From positions 1,746,375-1,810,374 of the forward strand of contig CBDEGM010000003.1 in NCBI GenBank assembly GCA_965237715.1: DNA of 64,000 nt, in the 5' to 3' direction. The notes under the pieces are model-generated. The model saw nothing but the letters and a program-made list of their open reading frames with translations, was not told the DNA's origin and did not search any database. Below, piece after piece: positions 28,688 through 51,951 of this stretch. Every line of letters starts with the position of its first letter. Within the stretch, counting starts at the first letter, position 1. A program made the position numbers and the translations under genes. The stretch is from Acidobacteriota bacterium. GTDB taxonomy: Bacteria; Acidobacteriota; UBA6911; RPQK01; CBDEGM01.

Positions 28688-28813
28688 ACTGTCAAGTTAA
28701 CCGAAATGCACTCTTTTTCGATGCGAAATCAATTCTAGCCAGCATGGAAAATCAACGACTTAGCTAGTACGTCAATCAGGGTTAACCTCCAGAAAATCAG
28801 TTAACTTGACAGT
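28688..28813. mobile_element. MITE copy a (126 bp; TIR ACTGTCAAGTTAAC, variant-1 interior)
   Basis: Perfect 14-bp TIRs. Confidence 0.6.
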
Positions 28814-29337
28814 GCCGTATCGAGCAATACCTGGATTGCCGGCCGGTCCCCCGGCCGGTCGCCGACATGGTGTAGCCGAACGACTCCCTCCGGGTCGACG
28901 AGCACGTCGCCTCCCAGTTGGCTGACATCGCCACTCGGCATCCGGAGACGCCGCCCCCGTAACAGCAGCTTCATATAGGCCCACCAAGACGGCGGTCCGA
29001 AAATACTCCACCAGTGCCCCCGGTTCATGCCATAGGCCTGATACACCTCCAGCGCACTGTCGATCAGTATCGGCCACTCCAGACGCGTGTCCCGCACATA
29101 GGCCTCGGCGACCGGGCCGCTCTGGAAGGTGACGACGACGACCTGGACATCGAGTTTCTTCAACTCCTTCTTGTGCTGTCGCAACTGCGACAGGTGTTCC
29201 CGGCACGGCAGTCAGGCTAGGTGCCGGTGAAACACCAGCAGTAGCCAGTGTCCGGAGTAGTCCGCGAGCTGGTGCCAGCGGCCTGTGAACTCGGGTAAAC
29301 GGAACCCGACGGCAGGTTGTCCGCGTTTAGTTTCCAT
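28801..29337 (-). CDS. Thioredoxin-fold TlpA/ResA-like redoxin with an in-frame TGA (29212-29214) at the CxxC first-Cys position (U-L-P-C). Candidate selenoprotein, copy A; the last codons and stop lie inside the MITE TIR
   Basis: ORFs 29212-29412 and 28801-29184 are in the same frame, separated only by TGA; alignment to TlpA (F.LP...G..L.D..G..LLV.F....U.PCR.E.P.L; WPILID; YQAYGM; VLVDPEGVV..HVG); hairpin CUGUCGC-AGUU-GCGACAG 21 nt after the UGA. Confidence 0.6.
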
Positions 29338-29474
29338 CGCCTGTGAGGGTGTGGGCAAGGCGCGCAGCAGCTTCGGGACGGTCTGCTCGGCCGTAAACCG
29401 ATTCCGTGACATTCCTAGGACTCTCCCTGGGGCACAGAACCTGCACGATTCTACACCTTATTGACAGGTCCAGT

Positions 29475-30336
29475 CGCGTTGTTGCACAATTCCGGCCGGG
29501 TCACGGACCGATCCCAGTCCTGTTTGAATGCTATCGAATTCGCACTGACTCAGGCATGCCCCGGCTTGACATACGATTCAGCACCTCACATTTGATGATG
29601 GCCTCGACCCGTTGATTGTCGAATCGTCGGGCCGACAGCTTAGGCCCAAACAACGTCTTGAACCTCGACATCGCATTCTCTGCAAGGCTTTGCCTGGCGC
29701 AACCACTGGAGATGCGCCATTCATATCGACCGAGTCTCCTTATTTCTCGTAGATGGGCATCCCGCATTGCCCGCCAGGCAGGCGGGTCCACACTTTCACT
29801 CAGCCGCGCACTGCGTCGCGGAGGGATGGTGGCGACAGCCTCCCGCTCGAGTATCGATTGATAACAGGCCCTCGTGTCATAGGCCCCGTCGCCCGAGACT
29901 TGAACGATGCGACCCGGAATCTGATCCAGCAGGGCCGGCAACAGACGACAGTCGTGGACCCGGCTCGGTGTAACCTCCACCGCCACAATCTCTTTCGTCC
30001 TCTCATCGACACCCAGGTGCAGCTTGCGCCAGGCTCTGCGCCGACCATGTCGATGCTTTCGGACGTGCCATTCACCCGAGCCGTACACTCTCAGGCCCGT
30101 CGCATCCACAACCACGTGCCGAGGCCGACTGCTTGGGCTAACAGTCAAGAACGTCGCCAAGGAACTCTGTCGTCTACTGAGAGTGCTGTAGTCTGGAACT
30201 GGCAGATCGAGTCTGAGCAACTCCAGGAGCGAAGAAACGAAGCCCTGCGTCGACCGAAGGCTAAGATGAAACACCGACTTCAATATCAGCGCACACTGAA
30301 TGGCCGTGTCGGAGTAAACCTTCGGAGCGCCGGGGC
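29475..30336 (-). mobile_element. IS903-group (IS5 family) element, truncated at its transposase-N-terminal end by IS481-like copy 7
   Basis: IR CGCGTTGTTGCACAATTCCGG at 29475; sequence near-identical to the full copy 39048-40111. Confidence 0.75.
29531..30283 (-). pseudogene. IS903-group transposase lacking about 65 N-terminal aa
   Basis: 250 aa aligning to residues 66-315 of the 315-aa transposase. Confidence 0.7.
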
Positions 30337-31555
30337 CGTAAGGTAAAAATATTCGGTCGGGCAGCGGATCCTTAGGATAGAAGGGCTCATGGGCGTGCGA
30401 GCATCGGAATCTCAGGCGATTTCCGTTGAGAAACCAGCTTTTGGAAACGGGCTCCCGGTGTGAGGTCGTCGCTCCGGCACAGCGGTGCTGACTCGACCTT
30501 CTCCCCAGTCTTATGGAGTGTATCCGAATTCAAGCAGCGTCTCGATAGTAGTATCGAAGCAAGCCACCGAGCCTGGGACGGCAACTTAATTCGCCGTCCT
30601 TGCGACCAACTTCATCTCCCGCATCAATGATTCGGTTCGCGAGTCCCTGATGATTCCGTTCGTGGTGAAAGTGCTCTCCGAACTCTCTCAAGGCCCGACG
30701 CAATGACGCTTCACCAAAGAAGATCATACGGTTGAGACATTCAGATTTCAGGGAGCGCATGAAGCGTTCCAGATGAGCATTGAGATTAGGACTCTTGGGA
30801 GGTAAGACTACCGCCTCGATGTCGCTGGACTTCAAGATCTGACGCAACGGCAAGTGCTTCGTGTCACGGTCAAGGATGACGTGGGCCGAGCTGCGGAAAA
30901 AGCCGTCGACACAGCCGGTCAGGTTCCTTCCGAGTTGCTGCATCCATTCGGAGTTGGGGTGAGGCGTCGCACCCGCGATTTCAATGCGCCGCGTCTTTAG
31001 ATGCATCACCACAAGGACGTAGAACGTGACCAGTCCTGACCGAGTCCAGACCTCAACGGTCGTAAAGTCGGCGGCTGCGATCGAATCCCAGTGAGCAGCA
31101 AGGAAGGTACGCCAGGCCGTGCGGCTCTCGCGCTCTGGAGCTGGCTCGATGCCGTGGGCTTTGAGAATGTTGCCAACCGTGGTGTCAGAAATGTGGAAGC
31201 CCAGGTTGGCTAAAGCACCCTGGATACGGTCATAGCCCCAGCTAGGATTCTCCTGAGCCATGCGCAGAGCCAAGTCCACAATCTGTTGTCGAATGCGTGG
31301 CCGGCCAACGGATTGCCTCTTGTCTGAGTGATCCCACTTGCGAGCGATAAGCTCTCGATGCCAGCGCAGAAGCGTGTCGGGCCTGACGATCTTGGCCAGT
31401 TTGCCGAGGCTTTTTCGGCCCAGCACCTTGCCCTTGACGGCCAAGCGTCGACGCTGGCCGTCGTTGAGCAGAATGCGGCGCTTGCCGAGCTTTTCTCTGA
31501 GTACCTGATTCTCAGTCAAAAGATACTCGATCGCGTCCTGCTGGTCTCTGTTGAT
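30337..31555 (-). mobile_element. IS481-like copy 7 (minus), 5' end removed by MITE copy c
   Basis: Right-end IR at 30337; homology stops at 31555, where the MITE TIR begins. Confidence 0.75.
30530..31519 (-). CDS. IS481-like transposase (ORF starts about 25 aa into the protein)
   Basis: 329 aa identical to the 359-aa family. Confidence 0.7.
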   Translation of the reverse strand: MTENQVLREKLGKRRILLNDGQRRRLAVKGKVLGRKSLGKLAKIVRPDTLLRWHRELIARKWDHSDKRQSVGRPRIRQQIVDLALRMAQENPSWGYDRIQGALANLGFHISDTTVGNILKAHGIEPAPERESRTAWRTFLAAHWDSIAAADFTTVEVWTRSGLVTFYVLVVMHLKTRRIEIAGATPHPNSEWMQQLGRNLTGCVDGFFRSSAHVILDRDTKHLPLRQILKSSDIEAVVLPPKSPNLNAHLERFMRSLKSECLNRMIFFGEASLRRALREFGEHFHHERNHQGLANRIIDAGDEVGRKDGELSCRPRLGGLLRYYYRDAA

Positions 31556-31556
31556 G

Positions 31557-31684
31557 GTACTGTCAAGTTAAGTGGAATTCTCGGGTTTTGGAGGCGAAAT
31601 CGGTCGTCGGTCGAACGTAGAATCAACAATTTAGGGACTTGCCAAGGCGCTGATTAGGCACCAAACCGGTTAACTTGACAGTAC
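31557..31684. mobile_element. MITE copy c (128 bp, TA-flanked, variant-2 interior)
   Basis: TIRs GTACTGTCAAGTTAAG / GTTAACTTGACAGTAC. Confidence 0.6.
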
Positions 31685-31898
31685 CCTAAAAAGGGCTTGA
31701 GAGACGGGCGTGTGAAAACGGTACGCCAACGCCACGCAGAAGCGTCTCTGCCAACCGAAGCCCCTCACCAGAGCATCGGCAAGCGCCCGGGATTTGGGCG
31801 GAAAACGGGGACGAGATCCACAAAAAACGTAGCAATATCAGAGATATAAGGGCGTGGCGGTGGGCGCAGTCTGGAGCGAACCCGTCTCTGGCCCGATT

Positions 31899-32095
31899 TC
31901 CCTGTTTAACAGGGAAAAAACAGGGAATTTCGTGGATTCGGCCTCGAATAGGCGGGATCGAAGCCTCCTAACCCACTGATATCATGGGGTTTCAGTTTCG
32001 AATTCCCTACGCCACGGAACAGGGAATTTGTTTGGTCGAACAGGGAATTTTCTGGGGGGAACAGGGAAAACCAGTTCGTGGAACAGGGAAGACCA
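31899..32095. repeat. Iteron-like array: four GAACAGGGAA(t/a)TT direct repeats at 21/21/22-bp spacing (32018, 32039, 32060, 32082), plus two more copies and inverted copies (31899-31927, 32001-32009)
   Basis: Read directly; the array ends 5 bp before the group II intron 5' GTGCG. Confidence 0.6.
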
Positions 32096-32100
32096 GTGCT

Positions 32101-34165
32101 GTGCGCGCGCACCGGATGCGCTGCGAATCGCAGCATCGATCCGGACAACGGGGTTCCTGCCGGCGGATGGGGTTCGCGCCGAACTACGGTGTCTTTCGCG
32201 GGTCGAGCAGCCCTATCTCAGTGGATGTCGATGAGGTAGTGATATCGGCGCACGAGACAGCGGCTGTCGTCAAGGCTCATCAGGTTGCGGAGGAATGCGT
32301 TGCAACACTTAGCTCGAAGGGTCGCCAACATCAGTGTGCCGCAGCAAGCGGCGTGAGAGATGGGAGTAGGCCTCCCGCAACCGGCTTGCAGGAGCAGGTT
32401 GCAAACCACCGTAAGTGGCTGTGGTTAAAAGCCGCGGTCGTGAGCGTTACGGAAAAGGTGCTCTAGAAGCATCAGGTGTGGATCAGGAAGACGAACACAA
32501 GTGAACCACCGTTCAAGTGCCGAAAGGACGAGATGGTGTCGAAACCGGGGAGTTGGTGTTGCCCCGGGACGAATCTGGCGGAAACCTGTCTACTGGTCAG
32601 GTGGCACCCGGCATAGAGGTGGCGTGAGCTTGATCTGGGCTCTCATGTTGAACTGCGGGAACCTGGAGCAACGATGCTAAGAGAAAGGCACAAGCAGAGA
32701 ACCTGCGAGGCCGACAGTATCGAAGCGTTGCCCAGGGGCGGACAAGCTCGTAGTAGCGATGAGGCTGCCGTAATGGCAGCGGAGCGAAGGGGCTTGGTCA
32801 CTCGGCTACAGACAAGCGGCCAACTGCTAGGCAGGAGGAGCCCTTGAAAGTAGCAAAGCCATTTGAGGTTTCTAAGAAGCTGGCAGGGCAAGCATACTTG
32901 GAGGTGAAGTCCAAAGGAGGTGCCGCAGGAGTCGATGGCGAGTCGCTTGAACTCTTCGAGCACAACTTGAAGAACAACCTCTATCGAATCTGGAACCGGC
33001 TGTGCTCCGGGAGCTATTTTCCACCACCCGTGAAAGCCGTGCCAATCCCGAAGAAATCGGGGGGCACGCGTGTTCTCGGAGTGCCTGCGGTCTCTGATCG
33101 AATCGCACAGACAGTGGTGAAGCAAGCCCTGGAGCCGATACTGGAACCGGTGTTCGATGAGGATTCTTTCGGCTATCGACCGGGAAAGTCTGCCCATGAC
33201 GCGATTGCCATCACCCGGAAACGGTGTTGGCGATACGACTGGGTGGTGGAGTTCGATATCCGCGCCCTGTTCGACAACATTGACCACGAACTGCTCATGA
33301 AGGCGTTACGCCACCATTGTCAGTGTCGTTGGGTGTTGTTGTACGTGGAGCGCTGGTTGCAGGCTCCACTTGAGCAGCCCGGCGGCAGTCTACAGGCGCG
33401 CGACAAAGGCACACCGCAAGGTGGAGTTGTGAGCCCTATTCTGGCAAATCTGTTCTTGCACTACGCGTTTGACGCGTGGGTGAGACGCCAACTGCCGGGG
33501 GTTCCATTTTGTCGATACGCCGACGATGGGCTGCTGCACTGCAAGAGCCAGTCTCAGGCGGAATACGTGATGAGCCTTATCTCGGAACGCTTCCGTGAGT
33601 GTGGGTTGGAGATCCATCCCGACAAATCGTCGATCGTCTATTGCAAGGATGTGAATCGCCTGGAAGAGCATTCGCGAATCAGCTTTGATTTCCTTGGTTA
33701 CACTTTCCGTCCGCGACGGTGTGTGAACAAGAAAGGGCAGGTTCACCCGAACTTTCTTCCTGCGATCAGTATCTCCTCGAAGAAGGAGATCAATCGATGC
33801 ATGCGTAGCTGGCATGTCCAGCTCAAGAACGAGAAGACGTTGTTGGATCTGTCTCAGATGTTCAATCCGAAACTCCGTGGTTGGCAAGCCTGCTATGGTT
33901 GCTTCCACGCGTCGGCACTGCGTCAACTGTGGCGGAACTTCAACCGGTATCTTGTGCAGTGGGTGCGAAGGAAACTCAAAAGATTTTCTGGGCATCGGCA
34001 ACGGGCGAGGCGTTACCTCGACCAGATTGCCCGTGCCAATCCGCATCTATTTATTCATTGGCGTCTTGGAGTCTTTCCTTGTGGCTTGAGTGATAGGAGC
34101 CGGATGAGCTGAGAGGTTCACGTCCGGTTCTTGGAGGGGCTGGGGGTGAGACTCCCCCGGCCTAC
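32101..34165 (+). mobile_element. Group II intron (5' GUGCG; domain V at 34097-34130; ORF in domain IV)
   Basis: Domain V GAGCCGGAUGAGCUGAGAGGUUCACGUCCGGUUC with the AGC triad; the 3' boundary is approximate. Confidence 0.7.
32844..34112 (+). CDS. Group II intron reverse transcriptase/maturase
   Basis: RT domains 0-7 with YADD; maturase X domain; 422 aa. Confidence 0.9.
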   Translation: MKVAKPFEVSKKLAGQAYLEVKSKGGAAGVDGESLELFEHNLKNNLYRIWNRLCSGSYFPPPVKAVPIPKKSGGTRVLGVPAVSDRIAQTVVKQALEPILEPVFDEDSFGYRPGKSAHDAIAITRKRCWRYDWVVEFDIRALFDNIDHELLMKALRHHCQCRWVLLYVERWLQAPLEQPGGSLQARDKGTPQGGVVSPILANLFLHYAFDAWVRRQLPGVPFCRYADDGLLHCKSQSQAEYVMSLISERFRECGLEIHPDKSSIVYCKDVNRLEEHSRISFDFLGYTFRPRRCVNKKGQVHPNFLPAISISSKKEINRCMRSWHVQLKNEKTLLDLSQMFNPKLRGWQACYGCFHASALRQLWRNFNRYLVQWVRRKLKRFSGHRQRARRYLDQIARANPHLFIHWRLGVFPCGLSDRSRMS

Positions 34166-34736
34166 TCAACCATCTTCTTCAACCACAACAAGGAAACTAG
34201 TTCGCCACCTCTTCGGTACATTTGCCCCCTTGATCTCTATGATGGACCGGAACTCCCCGCCGATGCTAGCGTGCCCGCTTACGCCGATTCATGCACCAAT
34301 GCCCTTCAACTAGTGTAGCGATCGGGACCCTCATTTCACTTGCGAAAAGTTTCCCCATTTTTCAAAAAGTTCACCCGTTCCACTTGTTAATCTTCCTAAC
34401 TCAACCATGTCAATTGGTTAGCAGAATCTCACCTGAATTTTTGGGGAAACTCCTGCAAGTGGCATGTACTAAAAAATCGGGGGAAAAAAAGGGAGGAAGG
34501 GCAGAGAAATTTAGGCGGACAAGCGGCCCTGAAAATGCATTATGCCGCGCGGGAGCGCAATGTCCGGAGCGACAGCATTTTACAACAGAGCATGAGCTGG
34601 CTACAATAACGGTCCGCTGAGATGGAGGCGTAAGCTTCCCCAGAAAAGACCCCATCCAAAAGTAGAATTTTCTGGCCCAAGGACAGAAGATGGGACAGGT
34701 TTCGCAGCAGATCGGGGTGACCGAGCAGACCTACTT

Positions 34737-34788
34737 GGGGTCACCTCTGTCCAGTTGAGGCATGCCTCAACTGGACAGAGGTGACCCC
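34737..34788. repeat. 52-bp perfect palindrome (24-bp arms GGGGTCACCTCTGTCCAGTTGAGG around CATG)
   Basis: Read directly. Confidence 0.5.
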
Positions 34789-35075
34789 TTCATAGCCAAG
34801 GCAGCGGTTGGATTTCTCGCGCTGATGGTGTAGTCCGCGCCCGCTGGCGGATGAATGGTAAAATAGACCCATGGGGAAGAAGATGACAGAAACGACAACG
34901 ATCCGGGGCGCACTGAAAGAGGCCGGATGCGAGCCCACTTTTCGCAAGACAGCGTCAGGACGAATCTCAGGGAAGTCATCCCCGTCTCAAAGGGTCTCAA
35001 AAGGGTATTGATGCCCAGGCCGGGTTACAGTACATTGGCCCCGTGGCATTGGCCCCGTGCTGAAGGGAGTACTCT

Positions 35076-35519
35076 ATGACTGGAACCATCCGTCGCGTCG
35101 ACTATTTTTATCTGACAGTACCCAACAAATCGGGCGAAGAGGTCCGGATATTAAGCACCCTAAAAGAAGCGGGTATTAACCTGCTGGCATTTTCAGGATT
35201 TCCAAGCGGCCGTCGAAGTCAGATTGACTTCGTACCTGAAGACCCCGTTGCGTTTCGAAAAGTAGCCAGAAAATCTGGCTGGAAACTAAGTCCCCGCAAG
35301 TCGTGTTTTCTAATTGAAGGAAAAGACCAGGCCGGAGCGTTTTTCGATGTGGTGTCGCGCCTCGCTGACGCGAAGATCAATGTCACAGCGTCGGCCGCCG
35401 TTTGCACGGGAGAGGGACACTATGGGGCGCTTCTATGGGTCAAACCCCCGGATGTAGGAAAAGCTGTAAGAAAACTCGGCATCAAGAAGCAGGTTGCGGC
35501 TCCTGTGTCCAGTAAATGA
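35076..35519 (+). CDS. Hypothetical protein, possible tandem ACT-like domain protein
   Basis: 147 aa; two beta-alpha-beta-beta-alpha-beta-like halves; weak. Confidence 0.3.
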   Translation: MTGTIRRVDYFYLTVPNKSGEEVRILSTLKEAGINLLAFSGFPSGRRSQIDFVPEDPVAFRKVARKSGWKLSPRKSCFLIEGKDQAGAFFDVVSRLADAKINVTASAAVCTGEGHYGALLWVKPPDVGKAVRKLGIKKQVAAPVSSK

Positions 35520-35552
35520 ATGGGGGCAAGTCGGCCGCCGGGGAATTGTTGG

Positions 35553-35590
35553 TCGAGTCGACCGGGCTCCGTCTCATGCAGCCACCTCGA
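35553..35590. repeat. Second copy of the roughly 35-bp GTCGACC...CTCCGTCTCATGCAGCCACCTCGA repeat
   Basis: See 26867-26903. Confidence 0.4.
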
Positions 35591-35709
35591 TCTGTCTCAG
35601 CACTGTTACGATCTGCTCTGGCTTGTACCTCCGTATCGGCATCTGTCTTGTCCTCCTCCGTAAGATTCTCTCTCACTTCAGTTGGTACAAATCCCCCAGG
35701 CCGGGTCAC

Positions 35710-35760
35710 CATCGAAGACAAGCCCCCCCCGAAGCGATTCATGCAACAAGCCGTCTTGGA
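35710..35760. repeat. Degenerate IS903-group-like terminal IR remnant (CGAAGCGATTCATGCAACAAGCCG)
   Basis: Compare CGAAGCGATTTATGCAACAACGCG at 40091-40111. Confidence 0.4.
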
Positions 35761-35825
35761 ACCCCAAAGCATTGTGCCGAAGACGACCCCGAGCAAGATG
35801 GGGGGCAGGAAGCTGCCGCCGACAA

Positions 35826-36362
35826 ATGGAAACTAAACGCGGACAACCTGCCGTCGGGTTCCGTTTACCCGAGTTCACAGGCCGCTGGCACCAGCTCGCG
35901 GACTACTCCGGACACTGGCTACTGCTGGTGTTTCACCGGCACCTAGCCTGACTGCCGTGCCGGGAACACCTGTCGCAGTTGCGACAGCACAAGAAGGAGT
36001 TGAAGAAACTCGATGTCCAGGTCGTCGTCGTCACCTTCCAGAGCGGCCCGGTCGCCGAGGCCTATGTGCGGGACACGCGTCTGGAGTGGCCGATACTGAT
36101 CGACAGTGCGCTGGAGGTGTATCAGGCCTATGGCATGAACCGGGGGCACTGGTGGAGTATTTTCGGACCGCCGTCTTGGTGGGCCTATATGAAGCTGCTG
36201 TTACGGGGGCGGCGTCTCCGGATGCCGAGTGGCGATGTCAGCCAACTGGGAGGCGACGTGCTCGTCGACCCGGAGGGAGTCGTTCGGCTACACCATGTCG
36301 GCGACCGGCCAGGGGACCGGCCGGCAATCCAGGTATTGCTCGATACGGCACTGTCAAGTTAA
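35826..36362 (+). CDS. TlpA-like redoxin candidate selenoprotein, copy B (TGA at 35949-35951, UxxC)
   Basis: Identical architecture to copy A; ORFs 35682-35951 and 35979-36362 in the same frame; the stop codon sits inside the MITE TIR. Confidence 0.6.
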
Positions 36363-36443
36363 CTGATTTTCTGGAGGTTACCCTGATTGACGTACTAGCT
36401 AAGTCGTTGATTTTCCATGCTGGCTAGAATTGATTTCGCATCG
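36349..36443. mobile_element. MITE copy b (variant 1), truncated by an IS903-group insertion
   Basis: One TIR plus about 80 bp of interior; the reverse complement matches copy a. Confidence 0.5.
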
Positions 36444-36825
36444 ACGCGTTGTTGCACAATTCCGGTCGGGGTCACGGACCGATCCCAGTCCTGTTTGAAT
36501 GCTATCGAATTCGCACTGACTCAGGCATGCCCCGGCTTGACATACGATTCAGCACCTCACATTTGATGATGGCCTCGACCCGTTGATTGTCGAATCGTCG
36601 GGCCGACAGCTTAGGCCCAAACAACGTCTTGAACCTCGACATCGCATTCTCTGCAAGGCTTTGCCTGGTGCAACCACTGGAGATGCGCCATTCATATCGA
36701 CCGAGTCTCCTTATTTCTCGTAGATGGGCATCCCGCATTGCCCGCCAGGCAGGCGGGTCCACACTTTCACTCAGCCGTGCACTGCGTCGCGGAGGGATGG
36801 TGGCGACAGCCTCCCGCTCGAGTTC
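36444..36825 (-). mobile_element. IS903-group fragment (IR plus the transposase C-terminal 86 codons)
   Basis: Homology to 39048-39430 stops at 36825. Confidence 0.65.
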
Positions 36826-37017
36826 CCCTTTACCCCTCTTTTCAACCTGACGGGCAACCCGGCTGCGAGTGTTCCCTGCGGCTTCAGCGAGGACGGCTTG
36901 CCGATCGGTCTACAGATCGTGGGTCGACTGAGGGACGAAGAGACGATCATAGCGGCTTCGGCCGTCTTCGAAGAGGGAAGACCCTGGGCAGAGAAGCAGC
37001 CGGGACGGTTTCCTTGA
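36826..37017 (+). pseudogene. Amidase-signature family (GatA/amidase) C-terminal fragment
   Basis: PLFNLTGNPAASVPCGF..GLPIGLQIVG.. Confidence 0.5.
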
Positions 37018-37082
37018 TGGTGGCGATAGCACTCTGAGGGGTCCAATTCAGCGTTGGTGACCGTCTCCTGGTGAGCTGAGCA

Positions 37083-38866: not shown

Positions 38867-38938
38867 AGCTTTGGCCTCCAGGCCGAAGTCTTATTCTTCT
38901 GAGTCTTTGGCTCGGACGGAGGCCTGGAGGCCAAAGCT
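38867..38938. terminator. Long inverted repeat (18-bp arms AGCTTTGGCCTCCAGGCC / GGCCTGGAGGCCAAAGCT) downstream of the ABC exporter gene
   Basis: Read directly. Confidence 0.4.
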
Positions 38939-39047
38939 AGTGCGCCTGCGAAGGCGTTTGATCAGAAGGGTGCAAGTTCCCTTCCAGGCCAACGTTACCG
39001 GCCTGAAGTCGACAGTGGTAACTGCGTTTCCGTGAGGAAAGGTGGAG

Positions 39048-40111
39048 ACGCGTTGTTGCACAATTCCGGTCGGGTCACGGACCGATCCCAGTCCTGTTTG
39101 AATGCTATCGAATTCGCACTGACTCAGGCATGCCCCGGCTTGACATACGATTCAGCACCTCACATTTGATGATGGCCTCGACCCGTTGATTGTCGAATCG
39201 TCGGGCCGACAGCTTAGGCCCAAACAACGTCTTGAACCTCGACATCGCATTCTCTGCAAGGCTTTGCCTGGTGCAACCACTGGAGATGCGCCATTCATAT
39301 CGACCGAGTCTCCTTATTTCTCGTAGATGGGCATCCCGCATTGCCCGCCAGGCAGGCGGGTCCACACTTTCACTCAGCCGCGCACTGCGTCGCGGAGGGA
39401 TGGTGGCGACAGCCTCCCGCTCGAGTATCGATTGATAACAGGCCCTCGTGTCATAGGCCCCGTCGCCCGAGACTTGAACGATGCGGCCCGGAATCTGATC
39501 CAGCAGGGCCGGCAACAGACGACAGTCGTGGACCCGTCTCGGTGGAACCTCCACCGCCACAATCTCTTTCGTCCTCTCATCGACACCCAGGTGCAGCTTG
39601 CGCCAGGCTCTGCGCCGGCCATGTCGATGCTTTCGGACGTGCCCTTCACCCGAGCCGTACACTCTCAGGCCCGTCGCATCCACAACCACGTGCCGAGGCC
39701 GACTGCTTGGGCTAACAGTCAAGAACGTCGCCAAGGAACTCTGTCGTCTACTGAGAGTGCTGTAGTCTGGAACTGGCAGATCGAGTCTGAGCAACTCCAG
39801 GAGCGAAGAAACGAAGCCCTGCGTCGACCGAAGGCTAAGATGCAACACCGACTTCAATATCAGCGCACACTGAATGGCCGTGTCGGAGTAAACCTTCGGA
39901 GCGCTGGGGCCCTTGGGCGGGTCGGCGTTCCGCCAGGCGGCAACGGCGTCCTCATCGAACCAAAAGGTCAGACGCCCCCTGGCGATCAGCGCCCGATTGT
40001 AGTCTGACCAGTTGCGTACTCGGTACCGGAACGTGTATTGATTCGGCGTCATTCCTCATGCTGGCACCCTGGCCCATCGGAGACAAGCGGACGTGCCGAA
40101 GCGATTTATGC
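39048..40111 (-). mobile_element. IS903-group (IS5 family) IS, full copy of about 1064 bp, IRs CGCGTTGTTGCA(C/T)AA
   Basis: IRs at both ends. Confidence 0.8.
39105..40052 (-). CDS. IS903-group transposase (315 aa)
   Basis: IS903-like core (VVDATGLRVYGSGEGHVRKHRHGRRRAWRKLHL), DDE, C-terminal MPESVRIR. Confidence 0.85.
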   Translation of the reverse strand: MTPNQYTFRYRVRNWSDYNRALIARGRLTFWFDEDAVAAWRNADPPKGPSAPKVYSDTAIQCALILKSVLHLSLRSTQGFVSSLLELLRLDLPVPDYSTLSRRQSSLATFLTVSPSSRPRHVVVDATGLRVYGSGEGHVRKHRHGRRRAWRKLHLGVDERTKEIVAVEVPPRRVHDCRLLPALLDQIPGRIVQVSGDGAYDTRACYQSILEREAVATIPPRRSARLSESVDPPAWRAMRDAHLREIRRLGRYEWRISSGCTRQSLAENAMSRFKTLFGPKLSARRFDNQRVEAIIKCEVLNRMSSRGMPESVRIR

Positions 40112-40202
40112 AACAACGCGTTTCGTTGTAACAAAAGCCAGCTCCGCTGATGGTCAAGCCTCCGGAGCCTTAGTCCTAGTAACAATTCCAAAAGGTACGG
40201 GG

Positions 40203-43200
40203 TCAATCTCCGGAAAATGCTTCAAGCTGGCTTGAGTTCGGATGTATCCGATCCGTGTAGAGGTGCCGTTTAAAACGATTGTCGTCAAGGCGATAGATCG
40301 CAGTGTGACGCAAGCGGCCACCAAACCCAGAGCCCACTTGAATCCCGCCGTAGGCACTCTTCTCACCAGCGATCACCCAGATTGCTGAGAGATCTTGCCG
40401 GTTGAGCATCTGCAAAAATGCGTCGCGATCGACAAGAGCCCCTGCGGGGCCAGATTCAACGACGGACGGATCATAGAATGTGCCTTGTCCATCTGAGCCG
40501 ACAAAAATCAGCGATCTCCCACTCGACAGCCGAAGTCCCATTTTCTCGGCTAGCCAGGGAGCAGGTATTTTGAATATAATCGTCTGATCGATTGAGTAGT
40601 CATAGTCGCCGCTCTCGCATGCGTAGGAGGCGATCGTTGGGCGTGTTGGCACGGCGAAGGCCTGCTGATCGTCGTGCGAACTCCACCGTCCGAATTCGCT
40701 CATTTCTGGGTGCCAAGGATATTCTCCGAGGTGAAAATACCCAGAATAAAGTTCGATCTTTGGGAATGAGCTGGGATCTGTCAGAATTTTGTCCTGGAGA
40801 CTTTTGACCATCTTAGCTTGGTCTTTGCGGCGTACGACGATGCAGGTAAGCCGAAACCACGTTTCCCGCTGAATCTCCCTCTTCCCGGCCCGCACGCCAG
40901 CACCTTTCCATGTTGAAAATCCCGAGAGGGCAAGCCATCTTCGGCCCGTCTTTGGATTACACAAATCAATCAGAGCTTTATTGTTGATGATGTCGCTGTC
41001 ACTGTCCAGCCAAGCAAGACGCTCGTGGGGATCCACCGCGCGAAGCGTAGGATTGAAAGGCACCCACCACGTTTTGCGCCACTCGGCCCAACCCTTGTAA
41101 TAGGTCTGAGTAGTCAAGAAGGACGGATCGATATCGCATAGTCCGACTTCACGGGCTCCTCGATATAGGGGTGGTTCGTCATCGTCTTGTTTCCATGGAT
41201 TGTCTAAGAAGGCAAGATTGTCCGCCATGCGGGCTACAAGTTCTTGGAGTGCAAGCCATTGGTACTTCTTGCCGATGCGTTCGATCCTGTGGCCGTTTCG
41301 GTCGTAGCCGCAGAAGTGATTGTCGAAATCACCGAAGCGTTTCGATGTCCAACCCAGTTCATGGGCTCGCTTGCAGATCCATCGACGGCCCCAATGAACG
41401 TCGAAGTGTGCGGCTCGATCCGCAAAGAGTTTGTGCCGGAAAAAGTCCTTTGCTCGAACTCGGAAGTCTTCCCATTGGTCCGACGCCATCGTCTGCTGAA
41501 GAGCCCCCTCGGCGGCGGCCAACCGCTCCGCCTCCGGACTGGACTGATGGCCGTGAACATCCTTAATTCCCTCGGTGGTGCTAACATATTCCTTAAAGGC
41601 CACAAGTTGGTCTGCGGTTGCACTGGCGACAAATTCCTGTATCCAGGTTCTGCAAATGTCGAGCGAAGTCGGTAGCGGCATTGCTCCGATTTTTGCAGGA
41701 CTCCATTTGTTCACCTTGTGATCAACTACATATCGCGCAAAGTCGCCCTCATGGACGGTGGAGAATACAATCGCGTCGCCAACGGACCCGCGCCCATGAT
41801 CCTCGGTATAGCCCTTAATCAATTCGTCCGGTACCGGTTCGATAGGCCAAGGACTTTGATATGGCGGCCGTGCAAGCGCAAGGTCGATTGAGCTATCCAG
41901 TACGCCGCAGTACGCTGCGTACTCTACAATACATCGGGCATGGTCGCGCAGAAGCGCATTCGCCGGTGGTTTCCCGTTGGCAAAGACCGTGTCGAAAACC
42001 ACCTGGGCAAGTTTGCCGAGTCCCGCTTCCCGCGTTCCTTGAAGAGCGGCGCCATAGCAAGCAGCCAACAGACGCTCAAGAACATACGGATCATTCACAC
42101 TCACAAAGTCGCCCAGTAAACGAGCGGCGAGCAAAAGCCGCCGACTCAGCACGCTAGCAAGGGCCTTGGTAGCCTTATCCCTGACCTCCCGGTGCGATGT
42201 GGCAAGGAACCAAGTGAGCATTGTCGAAGCCAAGTACGCACGATCCCCGTCTATATGCTCAAGATCACTTTGAAGCGCCCAGGAAATCAGTGTCTTGACA
42301 GGCTCATCGAAGCCACGCTCTGCCAAATAGACCGACCAGCGCGCATCGCGCTCCGGCATCGTCATTCCCATGAGCCGCTTATGGACAAAGAGTGCATTGA
42401 ATTTGTTAGACGTCTCTGTGCTGATTGCGACAAGCAGGTCGGTCAACTCGTCCGCTTGAACCAAGCCTCGAACTAGTTCGAACGTGTGACTAGTAAAGTG
42501 AGACTGCTCACGCCAAAGGAGGCTATTCAGAAAAGCGTCCCGCACTGTATACGAAGCGTCAGATCCAACATCCAATATCTCAACGCGGGTCCGTTCCGGG
42601 AGTTGAATGGTCATCGCCTCGATGATTCCGGCGCGTTCATAATTCTCCGTCCCGAAAACACACTTATGGAGAGGCTGGTCGGCTTGAAAGGAACTAGCCA
42701 CATTGTGGGTATTGAGATGGTCATCGAGCAAGTGCGACGCTATAGCATGATCGCTGAAACGCTCGAACGTGAAGCGAACCATTTCAGCAAGCGATCCATC
42801 ATCTTGCCGCAAGGGTTCGACGGTGAGAAGACCTCCGTTTTCCAGCTGCGCTAGCAGACTCTTCTCAAGGCTTCCTCTCGAGTCGAGAACCGATTCAAAC
42901 AGAGTAACTACGTCGCTTTTCGCGGCATATCCTTTGCCGGCGCCCACGAGTAATTGCGCAAAGCTGGCGATAGCCTTTGATACGATTTCCAGATGAGGGT
43001 CGAGCCTCATTCCCCGGTTCAGCGACTGAGATACAGCCTCGTTGTAGAATTTAAAGATCGATGTGACGCCGCGCAAACCTCTAGGAAATTCGGTTTTTCC
43101 CTCCTTTTCCAAGGAGTCGCAGCACATTTTCAAGAAAAGCGGATTTTCAAACTCGGGAACGAGATTAGGTGCCCCAGGTCGGACCATTCCTCGTTTGTCG

Positions 43201-44702
43201 AGGTACACCTTCGCAGCTTCGCCCCCGTTCGCCGCAAAGCCTCTGTGATCGACACGGAGGAGCCGATCTTCATCTATGTCATCCGGGATCACATGCCGAA
43301 CATAGGTCGAGCGGCATGACACGATCACGCTGACTCGCGGGAAAGCCTCGAAAGTATTGAGAAAGGCTGCGAGACGCTGCGGCCAGACATTAACGCCGTT
43401 GCGTTCGTTCAAAGCATCGATGCACACAATTGCTCTCAAGCTCGCGGCCTGCGCTGCTGCGTCCAGACTCGCGAGGAAGTATTTGAACTGCACCGTTGGT
43501 GGATGATCGAGTTGATCGCGAATCTGCGGCCACAGTTCAGCGTCGATAAACGCTTCGCCGAGAAAGAGCAGCGCTGGCCCACCTTCGTGAAGTTGATGCT
43601 CCACGATGTCGGCAAGCAAATGGGACTTACCGATGCCGGCCGGGCCCTGAAGCAGAACTGCCTGCGCGTTGGTCAGCCGCCAACGGTTCGAAGCGAGGTC
43701 GCTCTTGATTTCATGCAGTACCTCCATCAGTTCATAGAGGGTATGTTGCACCAAGCGTTCGGACTTGATGCCCATACTGCCGGGCTTGGAAGGCGGAAGG
43801 TCGTAGGACCAACGAAGGGCCTTTCTAGCGAGGTCGAGACCGTCTGCAGCTGCGGCACTCCAATCGGTTACAGGATAGGGTTGGTCGGGGCCGATTGGAT
43901 CCCCGTCAAGCAAAGACGTCAGAGCACAAATTGCCTCATCCAGAGGATCGATATGGGTTTCGGCTTCCTCCGCACCTGTTCCGCGTATGGCTTTTACGGC
44001 GCCGCTTCCTTTTTCGTTGACGCGTATAAACCACCCATCGATCTGCCTCTGAAGCTCAGGATGGCGTGCGAAGGCGAGGAAGTCCTGTCTGATTGGGAGT
44101 TCAACGTTTGTTTCGGGAGTGTATCGGCTGCCCAGAGACGCCCTTGCCTTCCCAAATTGCTCCTTGAACCAAGTCGTTGTTAGGGCCGCGTGGCCGAACC
44201 AGTACAGGACTCGACCTGAGTGGGCGGGGTCTTCTCTGACCAGACGAAGGCTGAGTTCGCTCTTGCCCCACAACCTGATAGTCAGGTCACGCTTCTGCAA
44301 TGCGGCAAACTCTTCCCATTTCGTGCACCAAGCGTCCCACTTCTCTTGTGCGGTCTTGCCCTTGCCGGTTCGGGAATCGGGAAGATCGAACGGAAGGCAG
44401 ACGATGTAATTAACGAGATTCGGGTGCCTATTCAACGCCGTGCATATTGAAACGTCAAGCTGTGCTGTCAGGCTTGCATTCCAGCTAAAGAGGTACTTGG
44501 CTTGCCATCCGACTTCCGTCCCGTCTGCACGGCGGCGGTAGCATTCGACACCAGCGTCGCCGCCCCGGCCTTTCCGATAGAATTTTCCTTCCGTGGATGT
44601 TGGCTCCAAAGAGGCGAGTTGGCAACACATTTCCTCAAACCCGGCGTGACGGCTTCCGTCAACCGGGCGAATCTTCTCGAAATTGATGTCTGGTAGGCTC
44701 AT
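40203..44702 (-). CDS. Avs4-like antiviral STAND NTPase: N-terminal Mrr-type PD-(D/E)xK nuclease, P-loop STAND ATPase and a long helical C-terminal sensor (1499 aa)
   Basis: Mrr-cat-like GGDAGVEC..(13)..GWQAKY; Walker A GPAGIGKSHLL; Walker B IVCIDALNE; sensor-1 VSVIVSCRST; about 900 aa of C-terminal helical region. Confidence 0.55.
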   Translation of the reverse strand: MSLPDINFEKIRPVDGSRHAGFEEMCCQLASLEPTSTEGKFYRKGRGGDAGVECYRRRADGTEVGWQAKYLFSWNASLTAQLDVSICTALNRHPNLVNYIVCLPFDLPDSRTGKGKTAQEKWDAWCTKWEEFAALQKRDLTIRLWGKSELSLRLVREDPAHSGRVLYWFGHAALTTTWFKEQFGKARASLGSRYTPETNVELPIRQDFLAFARHPELQRQIDGWFIRVNEKGSGAVKAIRGTGAEEAETHIDPLDEAICALTSLLDGDPIGPDQPYPVTDWSAAAADGLDLARKALRWSYDLPPSKPGSMGIKSERLVQHTLYELMEVLHEIKSDLASNRWRLTNAQAVLLQGPAGIGKSHLLADIVEHQLHEGGPALLFLGEAFIDAELWPQIRDQLDHPPTVQFKYFLASLDAAAQAASLRAIVCIDALNERNGVNVWPQRLAAFLNTFEAFPRVSVIVSCRSTYVRHVIPDDIDEDRLLRVDHRGFAANGGEAAKVYLDKRGMVRPGAPNLVPEFENPLFLKMCCDSLEKEGKTEFPRGLRGVTSIFKFYNEAVSQSLNRGMRLDPHLEIVSKAIASFAQLLVGAGKGYAAKSDVVTLFESVLDSRGSLEKSLLAQLENGGLLTVEPLRQDDGSLAEMVRFTFERFSDHAIASHLLDDHLNTHNVASSFQADQPLHKCVFGTENYERAGIIEAMTIQLPERTRVEILDVGSDASYTVRDAFLNSLLWREQSHFTSHTFELVRGLVQADELTDLLVAISTETSNKFNALFVHKRLMGMTMPERDARWSVYLAERGFDEPVKTLISWALQSDLEHIDGDRAYLASTMLTWFLATSHREVRDKATKALASVLSRRLLLAARLLGDFVSVNDPYVLERLLAACYGAALQGTREAGLGKLAQVVFDTVFANGKPPANALLRDHARCIVEYAAYCGVLDSSIDLALARPPYQSPWPIEPVPDELIKGYTEDHGRGSVGDAIVFSTVHEGDFARYVVDHKVNKWSPAKIGAMPLPTSLDICRTWIQEFVASATADQLVAFKEYVSTTEGIKDVHGHQSSPEAERLAAAEGALQQTMASDQWEDFRVRAKDFFRHKLFADRAAHFDVHWGRRWICKRAHELGWTSKRFGDFDNHFCGYDRNGHRIERIGKKYQWLALQELVARMADNLAFLDNPWKQDDDEPPLYRGAREVGLCDIDPSFLTTQTYYKGWAEWRKTWWVPFNPTLRAVDPHERLAWLDSDSDIINNKALIDLCNPKTGRRWLALSGFSTWKGAGVRAGKREIQRETWFRLTCIVVRRKDQAKMVKSLQDKILTDPSSFPKIELYSGYFHLGEYPWHPEMSEFGRWSSHDDQQAFAVPTRPTIASYACESGDYDYSIDQTIIFKIPAPWLAEKMGLRLSSGRSLIFVGSDGQGTFYDPSVVESGPAGALVDRDAFLQMLNRQDLSAIWVIAGEKSAYGGIQVGSGFGGRLRHTAIYRLDDNRFKRHLYTDRIHPNSSQLEAFSGD

Positions 44703-45115
44703 TCAGGTGACGCCGCAGCCAGCGTTGGCTCGCTCAGTACTTTGGGTGACTCGGGTGGTTTGTCCGACATTTTTTGAGCGATCGTGGGGATATCCTGCTG
44801 GATTTTCTCCGTGCTCGGTGTCAACGCTTCCTGCAGCAGTGCATCAAGCAGGCGGCGGCGGGTGTCGTCGCCGCTGGCGAGGCTTGCCTCCAGCCGGTCG
44901 CATAGGATCATTAGCTCATCGACCTTGACGACGATGCGGTGCTGCTCCGGGAGGGGTGGGAGGGGGAATGGCGAGTTCGCAAAATATTCGATTGGCACCC
45001 GCTTCTGTCCAGCGGTGCCGGTCATTCTAGAAATGCCCGTCTCAATGAAGTGTGGGCACTTGAGGAAGACGATGATGTAATCCGGATTGACGATGAGCGG
45101 TCGAACAATGTGCAA
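44699..45115 (-). pseudogene. Type I restriction-modification HsdS C-terminal fragment; its stop overlaps the ATG of the Avs-like gene
   Basis: SPFPLPPLPEQHRIVVKVDELMILCDRLEASL; upstream part replaced by MITE copy d. Confidence 0.55.
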
Positions 45116-45123
45116 TTCGGTAC

Positions 45124-45245
45124 TGTCAAGTTAACCGATTTGGTGTCTAATCAGCGCCTCGGCCACTCCCTAAGTTGTTGATTCTACATTCGACCGCCGA
45201 CCGTTTCCGCCTCCAAAACCCGAGAACTCCACTTAACTTGACAGT
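45124..45245. mobile_element. MITE copy d (122 bp, variant 2)
   Basis: TA-CTGTCAAGTTAAC...GTTAACTTGACAG-TA. Confidence 0.6.
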
Positions 45246-45499
45246 ACCAGTTACCGGGTTCATCCTTGAAATTCGCTCCGATCGGATGAATCCAATAGTC
45301 GTACGTCTTACCCGAAGCGCCTTCCCACTTAATGATGTCAGCCATCGATTTTTCCCTCTGAACTCAACTACTACTAGTTGTCATTTTCCACCGAAGCTCC
45401 CGGCGCTCGGGGGCGAGGTGTCGCGGATCACCTTCACCGGCCCGCTCAGGCCGGAGCGGGCTTCGGCGATGGGAACCAAGCCGTCTTGTTGTTTACGCT

Positions 45500-45991
45500 T
45501 CATGCGACCCCCGCAATCCGTTGGAGCAGTCGATTCCCAATTTCCCGCAAGTAGGTCAGATACCTTTCGCGTAAGTCGTCAGAATCTTGGACGGCCTTCG
45601 TATCGAGCTTCCGACACTCAGCAGCTACCTGGTTGTGGTTGAATTCCATCGGTTCGGATGAGTGGGCAAATTTGTTTCGTATTCGCCGGACAGTATGCAG
45701 ATCTTTTCTAATTTTGCGATCATATAGGCCGAGCGCGAACGCAATATCGACCTTTGCCTTGAAAGTCGAAAGCGGTCCATAAGTCTTGAATATTTCGTCT
45801 ATTTCGTCCCGGCGATTCAACGCAACAAATCTTGTCATGATCGCATCACGTAGCCTGTCTTCGAAATACGCTGCGGCAAGAATAGCGGCAGCCCTGTCGC
45901 TCTCTTCGGCAAGTGCGATCTGGTAGTCATAGGCACGCTCGATGATTTGTCTGCGCGTTTTTTCTTCCTTACTCATTTTCCAGCGGCACAC
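45500..45991 (-). CDS. DUF4145-like (HEPN-superfamily) protein
   Basis: HTVRRIRNKFAH (Rx4-6H) in an all-helical 163-aa protein. Confidence 0.45.
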   Translation of the reverse strand: MCRWKMSKEEKTRRQIIERAYDYQIALAEESDRAAAILAAAYFEDRLRDAIMTRFVALNRRDEIDEIFKTYGPLSTFKAKVDIAFALGLYDRKIRKDLHTVRRIRNKFAHSSEPMEFNHNQVAAECRKLDTKAVQDSDDLRERYLTYLREIGNRLLQRIAGVA

Positions 45992-46230
45992 ACTCCATGT
46001 GGTGCAACGCCTGGAGGCGTGGCTTCGCGGAGCGCCTGGGCCGGGCCGCCCAAGCCGAACACGACTTCCCCGATCGGAACTAACTCGCCGTGTTGACGCT
46101 GCATGGCTTTATTCTCCCATGCGGCTCAGACAAGACAGGCGGCGGGAGAAGGGTTACAGGCCCAGGTGGCCGTCCTGGGAGCGCCCGCCCCCGTTTTAAC
46201 GGGTCTGGGACGGTCGTGCTGATAATGGCG

Positions 46231-47058
46231 TTAGATACCAGCATGCACGACTCCTTCCAATTGTTGCGCCATTAGGATCATCTTCGCGGGCGGGCCTTGG
46301 AAGACGATGCCCGCTTTCTCAAGTTTCATCTCGTCCAGGTAGCGCCATCCTTCAAACACGAGTTTGGTTCCCTCCCTTTTGAGAAATGCCTCGACGAAGC
46401 CCAGTGACTCGCCTTGCCGGGTGGCCTGAGCGAAGCGGCCCCACTCTGTGGACAGCAATTCTTCTGGATACCAGACCTCCGGGTTGCATGGAAATCCATT
46501 GATCATCTCCGCATGCGTCGGTTTGCAGATCCGAGTGATGTTCCTGGGACCCAACGCGGCATCCAATTTGACCACGACATCCCGCACCGTGGGGGATCCC
46601 TCGTGCAGCAGCTTAATTTGATACTGGTGGAAGGCTTCGTTATATTCCGCCTTCCGTTCGCTGTAATCGGGCGGCAGTTCCCGATGCCGACCGAGGTTTA
46701 GCGTCGCCTGCCCCGCCGCCTTACCGATGCGGTTTGCCGTCAAATCCCCCAACACTCCGTCCTGATAGGCGAGTTCGGCCTTGGTGCGGCTCTGATCATC
46801 CCACTTCATGAACAGCTCGCCGAGGTCGTGGCCCCAGGCCTCTTTTCGCGGAATGGCTCTCGGCCCCTTTTTGAGGTACACTTTCAGCAGCAGTTCCATG
46901 GTTTCATGCGCGGCGGTGTAGGCGGCGCTGATGAATCCCAGGTTGTACGGTGGGTACATATCCTGGAGATGTGATGCGGACAGTACTGCCGCCGCGTCTA
47001 GTTTGCTAGTGGCGTAAGCAAATGCTGCCGTATTACTAACTCCACCCGGATCACTCAT
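46231..47058 (-). CDS. Hypothetical 275-aa protein with a possible N-terminal HEPN-like motif (RKEAWGH)
   Basis: Rx5H motif in a helical N-terminal region; otherwise no recognisable family. Confidence 0.3.
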   Translation of the reverse strand: MSDPGGVSNTAAFAYATSKLDAAAVLSASHLQDMYPPYNLGFISAAYTAAHETMELLLKVYLKKGPRAIPRKEAWGHDLGELFMKWDDQSRTKAELAYQDGVLGDLTANRIGKAAGQATLNLGRHRELPPDYSERKAEYNEAFHQYQIKLLHEGSPTVRDVVVKLDAALGPRNITRICKPTHAEMINGFPCNPEVWYPEELLSTEWGRFAQATRQGESLGFVEAFLKREGTKLVFEGWRYLDEMKLEKAGIVFQGPPAKMILMAQQLEGVVHAGI

Positions 47059-47185
47059 TTCTCTGGCGACTCTCCCTCCATCGGTAGAATCTGCTGCTTC
47101 TCCGATGGATTGGATCTCACCCGCTGCGCCTTCTCGAAAGTCACGTCTTCGGCCAGGGGGTTGTCTACGCGCTTCCCGCCCAAGG

Positions 47186-47274
47186 GTACTGTCAAGTTAA
47201 CCGATTTGGTGTCTAATCAGCGCCTCGGCCACTCCCTAAGTTGTTGATTCTACATTCGACCGCCGACCGTTTCC
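47186..47274. mobile_element. MITE copy e (variant 2), 3'-truncated by insertion of IS481-like copy 1
   Basis: Identical to copy d up to ...CCGACCGTTTCC, then the IS IRL. Confidence 0.55.
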
Positions 47275-51950: not shown

Positions 51951-51951
51951 C

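Follow-up and report, generated by a model that had tools for sequence, protein, structure and literature searches.

The five interspersed repeats of the window (the whole stretch of DNA that was analysed, 64 kb) are most probably copies of a 130–132-bp non-autonomous transposon (MITE) that belongs to the IS6/IS26 family and moves by the IS6 pathway, a reading to which we assign a probability of roughly 80%. When up to two mismatches were allowed, the core of the terminal inverted repeat (TIR), CTGTCAAGTTAAC, matched eight times in the window against 0.72 matches expected, a number reached in none of 100 shuffles of the window, and all eight matches were located inside the five copies (a to e) named in an earlier note on this DNA. 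The enrichment of the TIR core thus showed that the repeat family described there is real. The positions given for its members were also correct but their extents were not, as the true ends lie about 3 nt further out on each side. Three of the copies are complete (a, c and d; 130–132 bp), and two (b and e) are truncated (Table 1). Copy e matches copy d over its first 90 nt with 100% identity. Copies a and b cannot be counted as independent, since both reside within an inverted segmental duplication of 620 bp (28718-29337 / 35826-36444), the arms of which are 100% complementary except for a 1-nt indel. The interiors of the two subfamilies, v1 and v2, had been regarded as unrelated. Instead, they turned out to be equal in length and alignable, and they share invariant blocks, AATCAAC.A.TTAG among them.

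Table 1. Positions of the MITE copies, neighbouring IS elements, central motifs and affected genes in the window.
Feature	Position	Strand	Description
MITE copy a	28685..28816	+	Subfamily v1, 132 bp, complete; TIRs GATACTGTCAAGTTAAC / GTTAACTTGACAGTGCC
MITE copy b	36347..~36444	-	Subfamily v1; ~98 nt left, then cut by an IS5-family fragment
MITE copy c	31556..31685	+	Subfamily v2, 130 bp, complete
MITE copy d	45119..45248	-	Subfamily v2, 130 bp, complete; hsdS 3' fragment on one side, 3'-truncated small ORF on the other
MITE copy e	47185..47274	-	Subfamily v2; cut by the inserted IS481-like element
Central WATCAANNNNTTR motif, copy c	31621..31633	+	IHF-consensus match
Central motif, other copies	28750-28762, 36400-36412, 45171-45183, 47237-47249	+, -, -, -	
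IS6-family element	49089..49893	+	805 bp, TIR GGCATTGTCACGTTAAG; transposase 49146-49841
Second, more distant IS6-family element	27794..28605	-	812 bp, TIR GGCACTGTCAGAGG; transposase 27847-28548
IS481-like element	47275..48691	+	1417 bp, TIR CGTAAGGTnAAAATATTC; transposase 47420-48499; interrupts copy e
IS481-like element, 5'-truncated	30337..31555	-	Positions 200-1417 of the same element as at 47275..48691
SelL-related redoxin gene	28801..29337	-	In-frame TGA 29212-29214; 3' end from copy a
Duplicate redoxin gene	35826-36362	+	Terminates in copy b
hsdS fragment (type I R-M specificity subunit)	44699..45115	-	5'-truncated; ends 3 nt from copy d

The inverted repeat of the MITE spans 17 nt, GGYACTGTCAAGTTAAS, of which the conspicuous 'TA' forms nt 3-4. 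Its GG tips, CTGT motif and length within 15–20 bp agree with the signature of the IS6 family, whose members are recognised by GG tips, cTGTt, 8-bp repeats and their size of ~800 bp (PMC7986276). The termini among metagenomic copies read GGTAC in 116 and GGCAC in 25 of the 158 ends (together 141/158). Further copies, the lack of which the earlier note had named as speaking against the family, abound in related genomes: 37 complete non-redundant copies were collected from the window and many Acidobacteriota MAGs, and 79 additional copies from metagenomes brought the set to 116. These copies measure 120–141 bp, mostly 130–131 bp, contain no transposase ORF and have unrelated flanks, and the 128–131-bp class comprises 11 divergent subfamilies of one length. 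Some copies were found inside other ISs, near-identical copies occur at separate loci of one genome, and flank BLAST among loci returned matches on one side only. A paired-TIR scan of viral contigs gave no matches.

An autonomous partner was found in an Acidobacteriota MAG (L045, 4018-4821; 804 bp). Its IRL and IRR are identical to those of MITE subfamily v2 over 17 and 22 nt, and they show the same asymmetry, with IRL continuing to ...TTAAG and IRR to ...TTAACCGG. The ORF of this element (232 aa) scored 216 bits against NF033587 (cutoff 125), which identifies it as an IS6 transposase; its identity to plasmid-borne IS6 transposases does not exceed 61%. Decayed copies of the same type of IS are present in L002, L016, L024, L037 and L043. 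Indeed, all longer elements bounded by the MITE TIR that we examined encode an IS6 transposase, whole or in fragments, and the IS630-family parent with this TIR that the earlier note had envisaged was not found. Likewise, the window ORFs scanned (26–50 kb) included no IS630-family transposase above cutoff. A cognate IS with MITE-identical ends was absent from the 64-kb window, where the nearest IS6 differs at 3-4 of the 17 TIR positions. The element at 49089..49893 is the closest in-window candidate helper, its transposase being 50% identical to the cognate one; the more distant IS6 element lies 79 nt from copy a. When the MITE was aligned to six IS6 elements, homology was confined to the terminal 16-24 nt, which leaves an origin by simple internal deletion of known ISs unsupported, and similarity between the MITE interior and that of the cognate IS was not found.

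To describe the insertion sites, duplications of 2-9 bp were searched in nine registers for 37 copies. None of the 37 carried a target duplication in any register, the sole signal being the palindromic TA/GTAC within the TIR. In the complete set, 115 of the 116 copies lacked a target duplication of any length, and flank matches occurred at random expectation. The single exception, L086, is a member of a 121-bp subfamily without the central motif and displays a perfect 8-bp duplication, TGGTTTTG, exactly outside the GG...TC tips; about 0.002 perfect 8-bp flank matches would be expected by chance (116 x 4^-8). Four junctions with a known uninterrupted target were available (window copy c, L029, L057 and L015). 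At each of them the MITE starts at GG, the target contains neither TA nor GGTA, and the opposite flank never continues the target. The left end of copy c joins position 200 of the truncated IS481-like element, precisely the point of its truncation, while copy d, L050 and L059 are each situated between two different truncated sequences. Many copies lie in IS-dense regions, and later recombination could also delete duplications. Reciprocal 8-mer flank pairs, the signature of replicative inversion, were not present among the sampled ends (each genome sampled in part, duplicated loci aside). Reading frames 'restored' across each copy were mostly spurious high-GC ORFs, and none of them made a convincing case for a simple insertion within a gene. 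It has been described that intramolecular replicative transposition results in deletion or inversion and that flanking repeats are lost (Varani et al., PMC7986276). The missing duplications and one-sided junctions therefore fit IS6-type replicative or targeted transposition, which yields deletions and inversions.

The second constant feature of the family is a motif that matches the IHF consensus, WATCAANNNNTTR, at nt 66. It is exact in 31 of 37 copies, and none of the 11 divergent clusters in the 128–131-bp class lacks it; in the window, its five matches all fall within the five copies, against 0.89 expected. Across cluster consensuses, the majority fraction was 0.97 at the specified motif positions, compared with 0.68 at the N positions and 0.55 in the remaining interior. 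The central motif is as strongly conserved as the TIRs. For Acidobacteriota it is a predicted IHF site, on the basis of the E. coli consensus. One element of 131 bp with IS6-C-like ends (L042) has no motif at nt 66. A -10 promoter was considered as well and rejected, since the TAGAAT overlapping the motif varies across subfamilies whereas the IHF-consensus positions are conserved.

That the copies alter genes in this region, as had been proposed, was borne out. The redoxin gene owes its final four codons and its TAA to copy a (...D T A L S S *), and its duplicate likewise owes them to copy b, in agreement with the idea that the MITE supplies the stop codon. The hsdS gene had been thought to be split, but it is truncated instead: a single 3' fragment of 138 codons abuts copy d, and a different, 3'-truncated small ORF lies on the other side. 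A GIY-YIG-like nature of the ORF to the right of copy d was unsupported, as Pfam gave no match on the 34-aa fragment. The truncated hsdS and IS genes adjoin an Avs2 defence gene.

The classification as a MITE in the earlier note thus stands, but not its assignment to Tc1/IS630-derived Stowaway-like elements, which would insert at TA and duplicate it. This reading was suggested by the ggTACTG...CAGTAcc boundaries of copies c and d and accords with a palindromic TA or GTAC in the same register at both ends of 28/37 and 59/79 copies. The 'TA on both sides' attributed to all complete copies is true of c and d only, as copy a reads GATAC...GTGCC, and the TA belongs to nt 3-4 of an IS6-type TIR. Among related ends the sequences GGCAC, GGTGC and GGCAT occur, and a 'TA duplication' is therefore impossible there. 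Neither TA nor GGTA is found in the four uninterrupted targets, and the only real duplication is one of 8 bp outside GG...TC. Moreover, the autonomous element with identical ends encodes an IS6 and not an IS630 transposase. A TA target preference, the lack of which the earlier note had named as speaking against such MITEs, was not found. A Tc1/IS630 origin is thereby left with almost no credence.

Conceivably, an IS6-derived MITE could normally make simple insertions with 8-bp duplications that were later scrambled by RecA recombination or rearrangements in IS-dense regions. The window does abound in IS copies, in insertions nested within one another and in inverted duplications with 100% identity, and one copy has retained a clean 8-bp duplication. 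This scenario would, however, require loss of the duplication in more than 99% of 116 copies in many genomes; the sampled ends revealed no redistributed duplication halves within genomes (the left flank of one copy matching the right flank of another), and the distribution of flank matches was that of pure chance. We regard it as unlikely. Far less probable still is that the repeats are not mobile as a unit, but instead either represent a conserved regulatory element or structured RNA, or are what remains of full-length IS6 elements after decay. The conserved central motif would be in line with such a role, and single copies fold well (z-scores of -4 to -5), but this is due to the TIR stem. 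The consensus fold of 12 divergent copies consists of the TIR stem alone without compensatory changes, for which the RNA-element idea was dropped, and Rfam detected only a group II intron in the whole window and no family matching the copies. Furthermore, the interiors of MITE and IS are unrelated, and 116 fixed-length copies reside in unrelated contexts, some inside other ISs and one with an 8-bp duplication.

We propose that the 17-nt ends are predicted binding and cleavage sites for an IS6-type DDE transposase, which an autonomous IS of ~804 bp with identical ends, of the type found in L045, would provide in trans. Movement would then be IS6-like, by replicative (cointegrate) or targeted transposition, and within a chromosome this pathway would produce deletions and inversions instead of simple insertions. 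Copies may thus have been left at rearrangement breakpoints without target duplications, with neighbours such as the redoxin, hsdS and IS481-like sequences truncated or re-terminated by these events, while a rare simple insertion would generate the 8-bp duplication typical of the family. A DNA-bending protein may bind the central IHF-type site, which is placed at constant spacing from the ends, and so draw the two termini of so short an element together. More tentatively, the 131-bp class could be a 'bent' MITE in which an IHF/HU-type site is required for synapsis by the IS6 transposase, and which spreads nearly duplication-free as a portable rearrangement breakpoint. If so, a MITE shorter than the DNA persistence length would be folded by a central site at fixed distance, and with its every move it would delete or invert DNA or exchange flanks, reshaping the defence and IS islands of Acidobacteriota.

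Placement in IS6 rather than Tc1/IS630 corrects a family assignment that was otherwise liable to propagate. Although rearrangement is driven to an important degree by IS6/IS26 elements, few MITEs of this family are on record, and here we describe an abundant, multi-subfamily IS6 MITE from soil Acidobacteriota. Its 116 almost duplication-free copies therefore constitute a natural data set on how IS6 replicative or targeted transposition shapes chromosomes, and the fixed-position IHF-type motif offers a testable hypothesis on end synapsis in very short elements. Locally, the MITE accounts for the way a selenoprotein-like redoxin gene, present in duplicate, is changed at its 3' end, as well as for the truncated hsdS and IS genes.

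With ISs of the IS6/IS26 family (IS26, IS257, IS6100 and, in Acidobacteria, ISSus3) the MITE shares GG tips, a CTGT core and TIRs of 15-20 bp, and its partner shares the length of ~800 bp and the single DDE transposase (NF033587). The 8-bp target duplication of this family was seen in one MITE copy. Unlike these ISs, the MITE is 130 bp long and has no ORF, and after position 9 its TIR reads CAAGTTAAC, whereas that of IS26 reads TGCAAA. Flanking repeats are often absent after intramolecular or targeted events of IS26 (PMC7986276), as they are in the MITE.

Stowaway-like Tc1/mariner-IS630 MITEs resemble the present element in being short, in having TIRs and, superficially, in the TA beside a CTG...CAG core; the present MITE differs by having no TA target or duplication and no IS630-type partner, its TA being internal to the TIR. 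The Correia elements of Neisseria are reported to duplicate TA, and no transposase is known for them. These elements (NEMIS/CREE) are MITEs of ~105-155 bp that have long TIRs and bind IHF at an internal site, and genes acquire ends as well as regulatory signals from them (PMC2229807, PMC10969869). The present MITE, by contrast, has IS6-type ends and does not duplicate TA, and its IHF binding is only predicted. IS6-derived MITEs are a kind already known but rarely reported, to which the present element adds. ISfinder holds only two in the IS6 family, MITEBth2 and MITEHarch3, of 227 and 336 bp (PMC6807381, PMC7986276), and a review of prokaryotic MITEs (2024) mentions neither IS6 nor IS26. Like the present MITE, these two are non-autonomous, with IS6-type ends and no transposase. 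By their descriptions they are set apart from the present element, which is shorter (130-132 bp), occurs in another phylum and comprises many fixed-length subfamilies with a conserved central IHF-type motif.

The 13-mer CTGTCAAGTTAAC (≤2 mismatches) has eight matches in the 64-kb window versus 0.72 expected, a count reached in none of 100 shuffles, and all eight fall within the five repeat copies a to e. The earlier note was right in calling these repeats a MITE family, while their limits needed correction (table). Copy b is cut at the start of an IS5-family fragment and copy e by the 1417-bp IS481-like element at 47275-48691, which bears its own inverted ends, CGTAAGGTnAAAATATTC. Since copies a and b both lie within a 620-bp inverted duplication (28718-29337 / 35826-36444; 100% complementary save for a 1-nt indel), which includes the whole redoxin gene, they represent one event. 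Beyond the window, a scan for TACTGTCAAGTTAACCG with one genome per species yielded 61 loci, mostly in long-read Acidobacteriota/Terriglobia MAGs, with 37 non-redundant complete copies (window copies counted in), and 79 further copies came from a metagenome scan for paired ends. At 141 of 158 ends, the element starts with GGTAC or GGCAC, with the complement at the other end. Because these termini are constant while the flanks differ, the TIR comprises 17 nt, GGYACTGTCAAGTTAAS, and the presumed flanking TA is its positions 3-4. The ends carry the GG tips and cTGTt motif that constitute the IS6-family signature (PMC7986276).

Coordinates of the MITE copies and associated features in the window
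Feature	Position	Details
MITE copy a (v1)	28685-28816	complete, 132 bp
MITE copy b (v1)	36347-~36444	truncated
MITE copy c (v2)	31556-31685	complete, 130 bp
MITE copy d (v2)	45119-45248	complete, 130 bp
MITE copy e (v2)	47185-47274	truncated
IS6 element	27794-28605	TIR GGCACTGTCAGAGG; transposase 44% identical to that of L045
IS6 element	49089-49893	TIR GGCATTGTCACGTTAAG; transposase 50% identical to that of L045
IS481-like copies	20988-21927, 30337-31555, 47275-48691, 50708-51950, 51950-53370, 56045-57467, 60288-61707	
IS5-family element, full and partial copies	29463-30336, 36444-36823, 39037-40124, others (57466-58074, 62718-63788)	transposase 39105-40052: NF033579, 308 bits
Group II intron with reverse transcriptase/maturase ORF	~32190-34170 (+)	Rfam matches 32362-32477, 34095-34170; ORF 32844-34112
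Palindrome just downstream of intron	34737-34788	perfect, 52 nt; two adjoining 26-nt arms (GGGGTCACCTCTGTCCAGTTGAGGCA / its complement)
Redoxin gene, duplicated	28801-29337 (-), 35826-36362 (+)	
Avs2 gene	40203-44702 (-)	1499 aa; PADLOC PDLC02164, 1705 bits

At some loci, the ends of the MITE also flank elements of ~800 bp. The 804-bp one in L045 (4018-4821) has an intact ORF for a 232-aa protein, which reaches 216 bits with the NCBIfam model NF033587 ('IS6 family transposase'; cutoff 125). The IRL (...TTAAG) and IRR (...TTAACCGG) of this element differ from each other in the same way as the left and right ends of MITE subfamily v2. Decayed or interrupted copies of this IS type were found in L002, L016, L024, L037 and L043, and related elements in Pyrinomonadaceae and Vibrio. 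That a same-ended autonomous element encodes an IS6 transposase refutes the proposed Tc1/IS630 origin; an IS630-family parent was also sought, and none of the ORFs scanned between 26 and 50 kb of the window exceeded the cutoff for such a transposase. Comparison of the MITE interior with that of the L045-type IS revealed no relatedness. We conclude, with a probability of about 0.8, that the repeats are an IS6-family MITE, which would be mobilised in trans.

The insertion sites likewise spoke against the supposed TA target. Where the MITE lies beside a repeat or gene with a known uninterrupted sequence, homology ends at the MITE's first G or last C, the opposite flank is not the target's continuation, and the intact targets have no TA or GGTA at the junction point. 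Such junctions are provided by copy c, at which an IS481-like copy is truncated, by L029 and L057, where a repeat equal to window 31848-32186 is interrupted, and by L015, in an integrase-like gene that is intact in L013. Copy d and the copies of L050 and L059 each lie between two different truncated sequences. Around the 37 copies, no direct repeats of 2-9 bp were detected in any register, save the palindromic TA/GTAC inside the TIR. Matches between left and right flanking 8-mers in 116 copies followed a chance distribution with the single exception of L086 (1107-1227), where a perfect TGGTTTTG...TGGTTTTG stands exactly outside GG...TC. By our own estimate (116 copies x 4^-8), ~0.002 such pairs are expected by chance, and this sole real duplication, of 8 bp, is an IS6 hallmark.

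Intramolecular replicative events of IS6 elements predict deletions or inversions in which the flanking repeats are lost (PMC7986276), which the junction picture fits, and targeted exchange of the IS26 type would be expected to leave the same picture. Later recombination in these IS-dense regions could also account for the missing duplications, which we regard as the weaker alternative. Reciprocal 8-mer pairs proving a given inversion were not found in the sampled parts of the genomes. For the replicative or targeted pathway as the explanation of the absent duplications, we see roughly even odds.

The two interiors, previously described as unrelated, align and are equal in length. The 116 interiors fall into 21 clusters, 11 of which form a 128-131-bp class that is highly diverged apart from WATCAANNNNTTR (0-1 mismatch), the standard IHF consensus (e.g. 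PMC9452768, PMC10380432). All 11 have this motif, whose first position is nt 66, or nt 65 in the 128-bp cluster. Across the 11 cluster consensuses, the majority fraction was 0.96-0.97 in the TIRs, 0.97 at the specified motif positions, 0.68 at its N positions and 0.55 in the rest of the interior. The window contains five matches, one per copy and none elsewhere, versus 0.89 expected. A bending protein at this central motif could help to bring the ends of so short an element together, and we tentatively consider such a role for IHF possible, judging from the sequence. The motif is missing from the 120- and 140-bp classes, which share these ends; no conserved RNA structure was seen beyond the TIR stem, and Rfam gave no match on the MITE copies. 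The motif is also absent from a 52-bp mini-version with two IRR-type arms (L033 4514-4565) and from the near-perfect palindromes of metagenome cluster C3 in the 140-bp class (e.g. L082 5498-5637), both with the same TIR.

The redoxin belongs among SelL-related redox proteins; the 127-aa piece scanned scored 110 bits with NF040769, short of the cutoff of 120. Its in-frame TGA at 29212-29214, read as A-U-L-P-C, falls within a U-x-x-C motif (HLA-U-LPC), which makes the redoxin a probable selenoprotein. The MITE does supply the gene's stop, contributing the last four codons and TAA; as the profile match reaches position 172 of 173, little protein was lost. One end of the inverted duplication coincides with the ATG, and the two gene copies therefore have different upstream regions. 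The hsdS ORF beside copy d retains only the 3′ portion (~100 residues) of a type I specificity subunit. Beyond copy d the 5′ part does not follow, so the gene was truncated rather than split. Since the gene for Avs2, an antiviral STAND NTPase, lies directly downstream of this remnant, the MITE/IS cluster sits within a decayed defence island.

A single 1417-bp IS481-like element is represented in the window by at least seven full or partial copies of 98-100% identity, some adjoining each other. One terminus of this element abuts a MITE end exactly in L059/L060, and copy e contains it as an insertion; the element may have a preference for sites at or near MITE copies. Of the IS5-family fragments, one truncates copy b and a second is interrupted by the IS481-like element. 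The repeat at 31848-32186, just upstream of the group II intron, recurs in several Acidobacteriota MAGs. The window is 96% identical over 3 kb to CBDBID010000044, and its IS copies are 98-99% identical to those of other Acidobacteriota MAGs. A 1.49-kb segment with the gene for a 465-aa BNR-like protein lies between two inverted MITE copies in L022 (1319-3071) and L053 (5979-~7630); this unit, 96-99% identical in the two genomes but with outer flanks that differ at one side or both, is a possible composite bounded by the MITE. Contig CBDANJ010000005.1 (69.7 kb; labelled Dehalococcoidia 'chromosome_1') carries three v2 copies (L019, L021, L052) nearly identical to Acidobacteriota copies and a segment sharing ~93% identity with window 14864-15696; this contig is possibly mis-binned, or is itself transferred or plasmid-like.

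The only IS6-family MITEs in ISfinder are MITEBth2 (227 bp) and MITEHarch3 (336 bp) (PMC6807381, PMC7986276), and a 2024 review of prokaryotic MITEs mentions neither IS6 nor IS26; the present MITE is thus a new and abundant example of a known, rarely reported sort. It stands out by its near-total absence of target duplications and its fixed central IHF-type motif. IHF sites are known from Correia MITEs (PMC2229807, PMC10969869), whereas here the motif is recognised by its match to the consensus.
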